DNA from: a virus
Taxonomy: Duplodnaviria > Heunggongvirae > Uroviricota > Caudoviricetes
Strand: one strand, 5' to 3'
Virus record (IMG/VR): IMGVR_UViG_2541047778_000011
DNA length: 25,141 nt
Below the pieces are notes generated by a model, which worked only from the letters and a program-made list of their open reading frames with translations, had not been told where the DNA came from and searched no databases. Shown here piece by piece: positions 13,997-15,491 of this stretch (the first letter of the stretch is position 1; every line of letters begins with the position of its first letter). The position numbers and the translations under genes were made by a program.

Positions 13997-15491
13997 TCTT
14001 TCACACATTATTGCCGCAGCATTCAATGAACCGCTGCTTCTGGAGCCCGCCTATGCGCGGGTTTTCTTTTGCGCGCTCGGGCGCGAGATGGGGGCAGCAA
14101 GTCTTTCGGTACCACAACAGCAGGTACAGTTTGATGCTCCCGGAATGCTGGCTGAAACGGACGAGTACATGGCCGGAGGTAAACGACCGGCCCGTGTTTA
14201 CCGGGTGGTGAACGGTATTGCTGTACTGCCGGTGACCGGCACGCTGGTGCACCGGCTGGGTGGTATGCGGCCATTTTCCGGAATGACAGGCTATGACGGC
14301 ATTGTCGCCTGTCTTCAGCAGGCAATGGCGGATAGCCAGGTGCGGGGCGTACTGCTGGACATTGACAGTCCGGGCGGGCAGGCCGCCGGCGCGTTTGACT
14401 GCGCTGACATGATTTACCGCCTCCGTCAGCAGAAGCCGGTCTGGGCACTGTGCAATGACACGGCCTGTTCTGCAGCCATGCTGCTGGCGTCGGCCTGCTC
14501 CCGACGGCTGGTTACCCAGACATCCCGTATCGGCTCCATTGGCGTGATGATGAGCCATGTCAGCTATGCCGGTCATCTGGCGCAGGCCGGTGTGGATATC
14601 ACGCTGATTTACTCAGGGGCGCACAAGGTGGATGGCAATCAGTTTGAAGCGTTGCCGGCAGAGGTTCGCCAGGACATGCAGCAGCGGATTGATGCGGCGC
14701 GCCGGATGTTTGCCGAAAAAGTGGCGATGTTTACCGGTCTGTCTGTTGATGCAGTCACGGGAACAGAGGCCGCTGTTTTTGAAGGTCAGTCCGGCATTGA
14801 GGCCGGGCTGGCGGATGAATTAATCAATGCGTCGGATGCCATCAGTGTGATGGCCACGGCGCTGAACAGTAATGTCAGAGGAGGCACTATGCCGCAATTA
14901 ACTGCAACGGAAGCCGCCGCGCAGGAGAACCAGCGAGTGATGGGGATCCTGACATGCCAGGAAGCGAAAGGACGTGAACAGCTTGCCACGATGCTGGCAG
15001 GGCAACAGGGCATGAGCGTTGAACAGGCCCGGGCGATTCTGGCCGCGGCGGCACCGCAGCAGCCGGTGGCATCCACGCAGAGTGAAGCCGATCGCATTAT
15101 GGTGTGTGAAGAAGCGAACGGTCGTGAACAACTGGCGGCAACGCTGGCGGCGATGCCGGAGATGACGGTGGAAAAAGCCCGCCCGATCCTGGCTGCTTCA
15201 CCGCAGGCGGATGCCGGACCATCACTCCGTGATCAGATCATGGCACTGGATGAGGCAAAAGGGGCTGAGGCGCAGGCTGAACAGCTGGCTGCCTGCCCGG
15301 GAATGACTGTGGAGAGCGCCCGGGCTGTGCTGGCTGCGGGATCAGGTAAGGCAGAACCGGTCTCTGCATCCACAACCGCCATGTTTGAACATTTCATGGC
15401 GAACCATTCACCGGCAGCGGTACAGGGTGGCGTGGCACAGACGTCAGCAGACGGTGATGCGGACGTGAAAATGCTCATGGCCATGCCATGA
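13986..15491 (+). CDS. C: Head maturation protease / scaffold gpC (S49 ClpP-like family)
   Basis: N-terminus AFNEPLLLEPAYARVFFCA... and core ...YDGIVACLQQA...VRGVLLDIDSPGGQAAGAFDCADMIY...SIGVMMSHVSYAG...ITLIYSGAHKVDGN match lambda gpC. Likely GTG start at 13986, overlapping the B stop. Confidence 0.88.
   Translation: MRRNLSHIIAAAFNEPLLLEPAYARVFFCALGREMGAASLSVPQQQVQFDAPGMLAETDEYMAGGKRPARVYRVVNGIAVLPVTGTLVHRLGGMRPFSGMTGYDGIVACLQQAMADSQVRGVLLDIDSPGGQAAGAFDCADMIYRLRQQKPVWALCNDTACSAAMLLASACSRRLVTQTSRIGSIGVMMSHVSYAGHLAQAGVDITLIYSGAHKVDGNQFEALPAEVRQDMQQRIDAARRMFAEKVAMFTGLSVDAVTGTEAAVFEGQSGIEAGLADELINASDAISVMATALNSNVRGGTMPQLTATEAAAQENQRVMGILTCQEAKGREQLATMLAGQQGMSVEQARAILAAAAPQQPVASTQSEADRIMVCEEANGREQLAATLAAMPEMTVEKARPILAASPQADAGPSLRDQIMALDEAKGAEAQAEQLAACPGMTVESARAVLAAGSGKAEPVSASTTAMFEHFMANHSPAAVQGGVAQTSADGDADVKMLMAMP
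14889..15491 (+). CDS. Nu3: Nu3-like scaffolding protein: in-frame internal start within C
   Basis: ATG at 14889 is in the C frame and preceded by GAGGAGG (14878..14884). This parallels lambda Nu3 nested in the 3' part of C. Product about 200 aa. Confidence 0.55.
   Translation: MPQLTATEAAAQENQRVMGILTCQEAKGREQLATMLAGQQGMSVEQARAILAAAAPQQPVASTQSEADRIMVCEEANGREQLAATLAAMPEMTVEKARPILAASPQADAGPSLRDQIMALDEAKGAEAQAEQLAACPGMTVESARAVLAAGSGKAEPVSASTTAMFEHFMANHSPAAVQGGVAQTSADGDADVKMLMAMP

Follow-up and report, generated by a model that had tools for sequence, protein, structure and literature searches.

The stretch of DNA analysed here (25,141 nt, IMG/VR record IMGVR_UViG_2541047778_000011; "the window" below means this whole stretch) carries a head protease gene, a second gene nested within its 3' part, and three repeats that are encoded by both. 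Gene 5 (13986-15491, plus strand, as are all genes, domains, repeats and ribosome-binding sites of the window below) starts with GTG and encodes gp5, a 501-aa S49 prohead protease fused to a scaffold domain and a homologue of phage lambda gpC. Gene 6 (14889-15491) is read in the same frame and encodes gp6, a 200-aa scaffolding protein analogous to lambda Nu3. The window was 99.6% identical to the phage PhiR63_2 of E. coli ECOR13 and 99.1% identical to phage 21, and these identities make it a lambdoid phage or prophage of the phage 21 type. The open reading frame (ORF) at 13986-15491 showed 99.6% nucleotide identity to gene 5 of phage 21 over all 1506 nt (megablast against phage records; M81255.1 and OL657228.1). 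A single amino-acid change, F249Y, separates gp5 from phage 21 gp5, and gp6 is 100% identical to phage 21 gp6. Codon 249 of gene 5 (14730-14732) encodes Phe in the window and Tyr in M81255 and OL657228. Gene 5 sits between the portal gene and the genes for the decoration and major capsid proteins, as expected of a gene of the lambda gpC type. From this identity and architecture, the region very probably belongs to a phage 21-type lambdoid prophage and holds its pair of head protease and scaffold genes (genes 5 and 6), in the lambda C/Nu3 arrangement.

The three repeats and the nested start are already known; they form part of the deposited record of the phage 21 head operon and are not new. 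Record M81255.1 (phage 21 head gene operon; its positions plus 12485 give window coordinates) annotates gene 5 at 13986-15491, gene 6 at 14889-15491 and a putative ribosome-binding site for gene 6 at 14878-14882. It also contains three repeat_region features, the "Tri1 box" (14956-15059), the "Tri box" (15096-15206) and the "Tri3 box" (15237-15350). In OL657228.1, the coding sequences are labelled "capsid protease/scaffolding protein" for gene 5 and "scaffolding protein" for gene 6, and the ribosome-binding site is annotated as well. Although the window as a whole is closer to PhiR63_2, its nested start, ribosome-binding site and three repeat regions are no different from those of phage 21 genes 5 and 6 in either record. 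PMC9119081 reports the complete genome of phage 21 and explains how the older fragment M81255 relates to it. The original prediction for this DNA, made from the sequence alone, was a correct rediscovery, and new annotation is not needed. The present analysis adds to the known feature the repeat statistics, the conservation of the nested start signal, the single-copy distribution of the unit with its range of one to four copies, a predicted fold, and the absence of a domain-database entry, since no Pfam or NCBIfam model was found to cover gp6.

Three divergent repeats of about 40 residues had been predicted, and they were borne out at coordinates within a few bases of the predicted ranges. R1 (Tri1 box; 14934-15056, RVMGILTCQEAKGREQLATMLAGQQGMSVEQARAILAAAAP), R2 (Tri box; 15084-15206, EADRIMVCEEANGREQLAATLAAMPEMTVEKARPILAASPQ) and R3 (Tri3 box; 15225-15347, LRDQIMALDEAKGAEAQAEQLAACPGMTVESARAVLAAGSG) align without gaps in a 41-residue register. 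They are followed by a C-terminal tail common to gp5 and gp6 (15348-15488, KAEPVSASTTAMFEHFMANHSPAAVQGG...DVKMLMAMP), for which the alignment gives SDTALDRLMQGAPAP...LLNTPV as the lambda equivalent. Local alignment scores between the units were 84-101, compared with 24-26 ± 5 for shuffled sequences (z = 11.5-16). None of 5000 composition-preserving shuffles of each partner reached the observed score, so that self-alignment gives the internal repeat statistical support. A profile hidden Markov model of the unit found exactly three domains in gp5, each with an independent E-value of about 1e-22. It might be argued that the repeats reflect no more than the composition of an Ala-rich low-complexity region and that the internal ATG is unused, because gp6 contains 23% alanine and Tandem Repeats Finder (minimum score 30) detected no repeat at the DNA level, the repeats being visible in the protein alone. 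However, the shuffles never came near the observed scores, and 49 units of 17 proteins form a gap-free alignment with position-specific conservation. The Shine-Dalgarno sequence and the ATG are conserved in lambda, phage 21 and the Salmonella prophage Gifsy-1, and genetics has defined lambda Nu3 as a product in its own right (Ray and Murialdo 1975, as cited in PMC3224144). This explanation has almost no probability left, and for the repeats it is already refuted. The units share 46-51% identity in protein, 53-61% in DNA and 34-39% at third codon positions, which agrees with the predicted divergence of the DNA. The repeats are real and result from an old duplication.

Comparison with other phages places this duplication. 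Across the phages of the 21-type clade, units in equivalent positions share 66-77% identity, and units in different positions 46-55%; therefore, the triplication predates the E. coli/Salmonella split of this clade. Lambda gpC (NC_001416) is 53% identical to gp5. Lambda has the same order of portal, protease/scaffold, decoration and major capsid genes, the same GTG start, and the same internal AGGAGG, 4 nt and ATG. Its gpC has 439 aa, in line with the length of about 439 aa given in the original prediction, and is shorter than the 501 aa of gp5. A profile search found one unit in lambda gpC (residues 362-400), aligned with R1, whereas the window protein has three. The alignment covers the protease domain and continues into R1, and a 36-residue lambda-specific insertion lies just before the unit. 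The lambda tail is of the same type as the gp5/gp6 tail. The lambda unit bears the R1-type signature RIMGIL..C.EA.GRE; R1, the positional counterpart of the single lambda Nu3 unit, is therefore the ancestral position, with R2 and R3 standing between R1 and the conserved tail. The three modules appear to have arisen by an old triplication of the single module seen in lambda Nu3 and most relatives. Lambda shares neither the three repeats nor the length of the window protein, and the interpretation as a repeat expansion stands. The expansion had been assigned to the "scaffold or delta domain"; the expansion itself held (one unit in lambda, three here), but "delta domain" did not, because this term belongs to the HK97 capsid protein. 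The Gifsy-1 protein STM2605 (498 aa) has three modules at matching positions and the same internal Shine-Dalgarno sequence and ATG. It is 53.5% identical over gp6, and in the record examined the nested gene has no coding sequence of its own.

The nested gene has a well-formed start signal. The Shine-Dalgarno sequence GAGGAGG (14878-14884; annotated as a ribosome-binding site in M81255 and OL657228) lies inside Gly-Gly codons of gene 5 and is followed, after the 4-nt spacer CACT, by the in-frame ATG at 14889-14891. The prediction that this ATG would yield a Nu3-like scaffold agrees with the signal in the sequence, with the annotation of gene 6, and with the layout kept in lambda and Gifsy-1, all of which point to such a product. 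For lambda, the literature shows that the separate polypeptide is made and that prohead assembly needs it (PMC3224144). AGGAGG, 4 nt and ATG are common to the window (agaggaggcactATG), Gifsy-1 (caggaggcactATG) and lambda (caggagggcgaATG, C codon 309), and the Gly-Gly pair just 5' of the internal Met is kept in the three-copy homologues. gp6 has a mass of 20.5 kDa and an isoelectric point of 4.6. Lambda Nu3 counted from codon 309 has 131 aa (13,394 Da, or 13.4 kDa), compared with the 200 aa of gp6. The RefSeq start of lambda nu3 is codon 239 of C, giving 201 aa, and no Shine-Dalgarno sequence is visible at that start. The RefSeq start looks misplaced relative to codon 309, which is the apparent homologue of the phage 21 gene 6 start. 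Papers from the Catalano laboratory reportedly describe a gpNu3 of 13.4 kDa, in agreement with a start at codon 309. In the lambda record NC_001416, the RefSeq nu3 start lies at 2633 and the conserved AGGAGG, 4 nt and ATG at 2833-2845. It is plausible that the weak GTG of the protease and the strong ATG of the scaffold set a low protease-to-scaffold ratio.

The part of gene 5 upstream of the nested gene encodes the protease. The Peptidase_S49 domain (Pfam PF01343; aa 146-293, 14421-14864) was found with an E-value of 1.5e-34 and 119.6 bits against a cut-off of 24.9. A gpC-like protease ORF with a Nu3-like part in its C-terminal 200 residues had been predicted, and this is what phage 21 gene 5 is. 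NCBIfam detected an SppA-type domain in gp5, and PHROGs assigned the whole protein to phrog_53, head maturation protease (1e-227). Ser162 (14469-14471, in CSAA) and Lys214 (14625-14627, in HKVDGN) align with lambda gpC Ser166 (CSAG) and Lys218 (HKVDGN). We take the two lambda residues to be catalytic, and by this alignment Ser162 and Lys214 are the candidate catalytic residues of gp5.

To determine the distribution of the module, 1.84 billion representative proteins were screened with a profile built from 23 units. The unit was matched by 1228 representative proteins at E ≤ 1e-3 and by 89 at E ≤ 1e-10. Among the best 150 of the 1228, one unit was present in 137 proteins, two in 10 and three in 3, and in the long proteins of this set the distance from the unit end to the C-terminus had a median of 50 residues. 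In S49 fusion proteins of 415-550 aa, the module typically lies about 50 residues before the C-terminus. In the homologues P0154 and P0235, it ends distant S49 proteins after long acidic linkers. The copy number ranges from one to four: one in lambda and most relatives, two in several independent lineages, three in phage 21 and Gifsy-1, and four in some E. coli prophages. The two units of the S49 protein P0130 (469 aa) have derived features in common (HLA.NT..SA.DAIATLK), which indicates an independent duplication. Among E. coli homologues, an in-frame hybrid of R1 and R2 leaves P0022 with two units, R2 is missing from P0018, and part of R2 is deleted in P0016. P0026, also from E. coli, has four units, and units 2-4 are 80-85% identical, which indicates a recent expansion. 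P0018, P0022, P0016 and P0026 are natural copy-number variants of the 21-type scaffold, and the first three are rare. Of 5426 complete E. coli genomes, 1870, O157:H7 strains among them, contain the 603-bp gene 6 sequence, which occurs at 2922 places in total. The matching records number 1875; in 1869 of them, one place covers 80% or more of the query, and nearly every match listed spanned exactly 603 bp. This prevalence and these full-length spans show that the three-copy state is stable, and it is very common.

The fold of the module was predicted with AlphaFold2. For the single unit R2 with 71 aligned units, the model had a predicted local distance difference test (pLDDT) of 83 and a predicted template-modelling score (pTM) of 0.61, and contained three helices (ADRIMVC, EQLAATLA and VEKARPILAA) with a conserved EA-K-G-R-E turn between the first two. 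The model of whole gp6 with 17 homologues (pLDDT 65, pTM 0.27) had three helices in each unit and disordered linkers, and the tail contained helices at gp6 residues 160-173 and 191-196. Because the pTM of the gp6 model is 0.27, the modules are predicted to have no fixed mutual arrangement. When the whole gp6 model was compared with the PDB by Foldseek, nothing with E < 3 was found, as expected of a model that is a flexible string. A PDB sequence search with the repeat profile gave nothing significant. An exact match to "AKGREALAE" in chain Un of 9hqv, a Toxoplasma mitoribosome entry, was attributed to chance. The folds nearest to the single-unit model were small protein-binding three-helix bundles, namely protein A/affibody, RuvA domain III and UBA. 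Against viral models, the top Foldseek matches were the C-terminal ends of S49 proteases from other phages (Salmonella phage 37, Synechococcus virus S-ESS1 and an uncultured siphovirus), with template-modelling scores of 0.70-0.76 and probabilities of 0.85-0.99, and with E-values that are non-significant for so short a query.

A nucleic-acid-binding role was also considered, in which the units would be helix-hairpin-helix (HhH) motifs. The spacing h-P-G-M-T-x3-A-x2-h-h resembles the HhH pattern, repeat R3 has a weak Pfam HHH match (E = 0.02-0.1), and weak profile matches to the NusA acidic-repeat HhH domains were obtained with E of about 1. However, the match to PF00633 reached 13-15.2 bits against a cut-off of 24 and involved R3 alone. 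Given this sub-threshold score, the acidity of the protein and the lack of specificity in the fold matches, a HhH role is very improbable.

The shared C-terminal part of gp5 and gp6 would resemble beads on a string, with a short N-terminal helix, three 41-residue three-helix modules and the conserved tail, the modules being joined by 7-10-residue linkers of Pro, Gln, Ala and Ser. The C-terminal 200 residues of the 501-aa S49 serine protease gp5 would also be made separately as gp6 from 14889. We propose that each module is a protein-protein docking unit that would attach the scaffold to the assembling head. The protease would be attached in the same way because it has the same C-terminus. The most probable partner would be the inner face or the N-arm of the major capsid protein gp7, and with three modules one gp6 chain would be trivalent. 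After shell assembly, the protease would digest the scaffold and itself. Distant S49 fusion proteins keep no part of the scaffold segment other than the module; since the module is widely conserved, common to protease and scaffold, and of a protein-binding three-helix fold class, a docking unit is the best reading. We give the docking role, with gp7 as the partner, about an even chance of being right. The scaffolds of P22 and phi29 also have a small helical element towards the C-terminus, a helix-turn-helix that binds the coat protein (PMC11922011). The analogy is functional only: the module here is three-helix, repeated and common to the protease, unlike the P22/phi29 domain, and no sequence or fold match of the gp6 module to the P22-type coat-binding helix-turn-helix was found.

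Several points weigh against docking by the modules. Lambda, whose head genes are of the same T=7 type, manages with a single module, so that a capsid of this kind does not require three copies. Each Tri box is remarked in M81255.1 as "function unknown; putative". Coat binding could instead be the task of the conserved tail that follows the repeats. The title of Medina et al. 2011 reportedly calls lambda gpNu3 "intrinsically disordered", which is hard to reconcile with a folded module; if this is correct, the module may become folded only when it binds.

In many phages, it is the extreme C-terminus of the scaffold that binds the coat protein. The modules might mediate self-association of the scaffold into dimers or oligomers while the C-terminal tail binds the capsid protein, and tandem copies would then strengthen or replace oligomerisation. 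The tail (F..FM helix and LLM..P end) is kept between the 21-type proteins and lambda, and in lambda a Nu3-Nu3 interaction and dimerisation have been reported (PMC3224144). However, the tail is not recognisable in distant module-bearing homologues such as P0154 and P0235, and AlphaFold2 predicts no contacts among the three modules of one chain (pTM 0.27). Self-association and recruitment of the portal are the main competitors of the docking role; we consider self-association rather unlikely as the role of the modules.

Interactions reported for lambda include Nu3-Nu3, Nu3-C, Nu3-B and C-B, and Nu3-E by two-hybrid (PMC3224144). Nu3 is needed for the incorporation of the portal protein B into lambda procapsids (PMC3224144). 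This requirement, together with the Nu3-B and C-B interactions, would suit modules that recruit the portal (gp4, the counterpart of lambda B) and not the capsid protein. However, the scaffold is needed in numbers far above the capacity of one portal dodecamer, and the Nu3-E interaction points to the capsid protein as well. Recruitment of the portal by the modules is therefore improbable.

Beyond the docking role proposed for gp5 and gp6, a wider generalisation can be put forward tentatively, and we hold it to be somewhat less probable than an even chance. The Tri box would be an uncatalogued three-helix domain of about 41 residues that serves as the universal head-docking module of S49 protease/scaffold proteins in more than 1000 protein clusters, and its copy number would set the valency between scaffold and capsid. 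In a very common family of prophage head proteases, the module identifies the scaffold end of the protein, and the 21-type gene occurs in about one third of complete E. coli genomes. The natural variants with one, two, three and four copies are a ready series for the effects of scaffold valency on head assembly.

Some module-bearing proteins lie apart from the S49 fusions. P0152 (223 aa; GCA_001908235.1, LGHK01000125.1; 5001-5672 of the stretch examined) has two diverged modules and a C-terminal repeat of its own (W[DG]AVL[KQ]SRGM). It has no attached S49 protease and lies outside a head-gene cluster. Its upstream neighbours are an integrase and six unknown genes, and downstream are a 298-aa unknown protein and a tape-measure-like protein. 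P0152 may come from a different type of phage or from a satellite-like element, and the module may have been borrowed by elements outside head-gene clusters. The gene context of the other three of the four stand-alone module proteins was uninformative: P0105 and P0153 lie on contigs under 1 kb, and P0108 adjoins an insertion sequence (IS) element.

The neighbours of genes 5 and 6 were assigned from the ORF list and the phage 21 records. The portal gene lies at 12404-13996; it is gene 4 of phage 21, a homologue of lambda B, and OL657228 labels it as portal. Downstream are shp (15528-15875), which encodes the head decoration protein homologous to lambda D, and gene 7 (15933-16961), which encodes the major capsid protein homologous to lambda E and presumed to be the partner of the scaffold; both are annotated in M81255 and OL657228. 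The GTG start of gene 5 overlaps the final codons of the portal gene by 11 nt (13986-13996). Its putative ribosome-binding site, GAGGAG (13970-13975), lies 10 nt 5' of the GTG in the sequence, and M81255 and OL657228 annotate it at about 13971-13976. Lambda C also has a GTG start and an overlap with B, and this layout would fit translational coupling and a low level of protease expression.

OL657228 places two "transcription factor CII" sites within gene 6, at 14894-14907 and 15128-15141 (minus strand), with the pattern TTGYN6TTGY. This pattern occurs four times in the window, compared with 5.15 expected by chance, and the sites in gene 6 were discounted. The alignments of the lambdoid phages 4C10, 1W, 3W and 4A7 to the window begin at about 9584-9867, each from base 1 of the phage itself. 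The region near 9580-9870 probably contains the cohesive-end site (cos) and the beginning of the virion map, and the window probably spans the junction of the prophage late region and cos.

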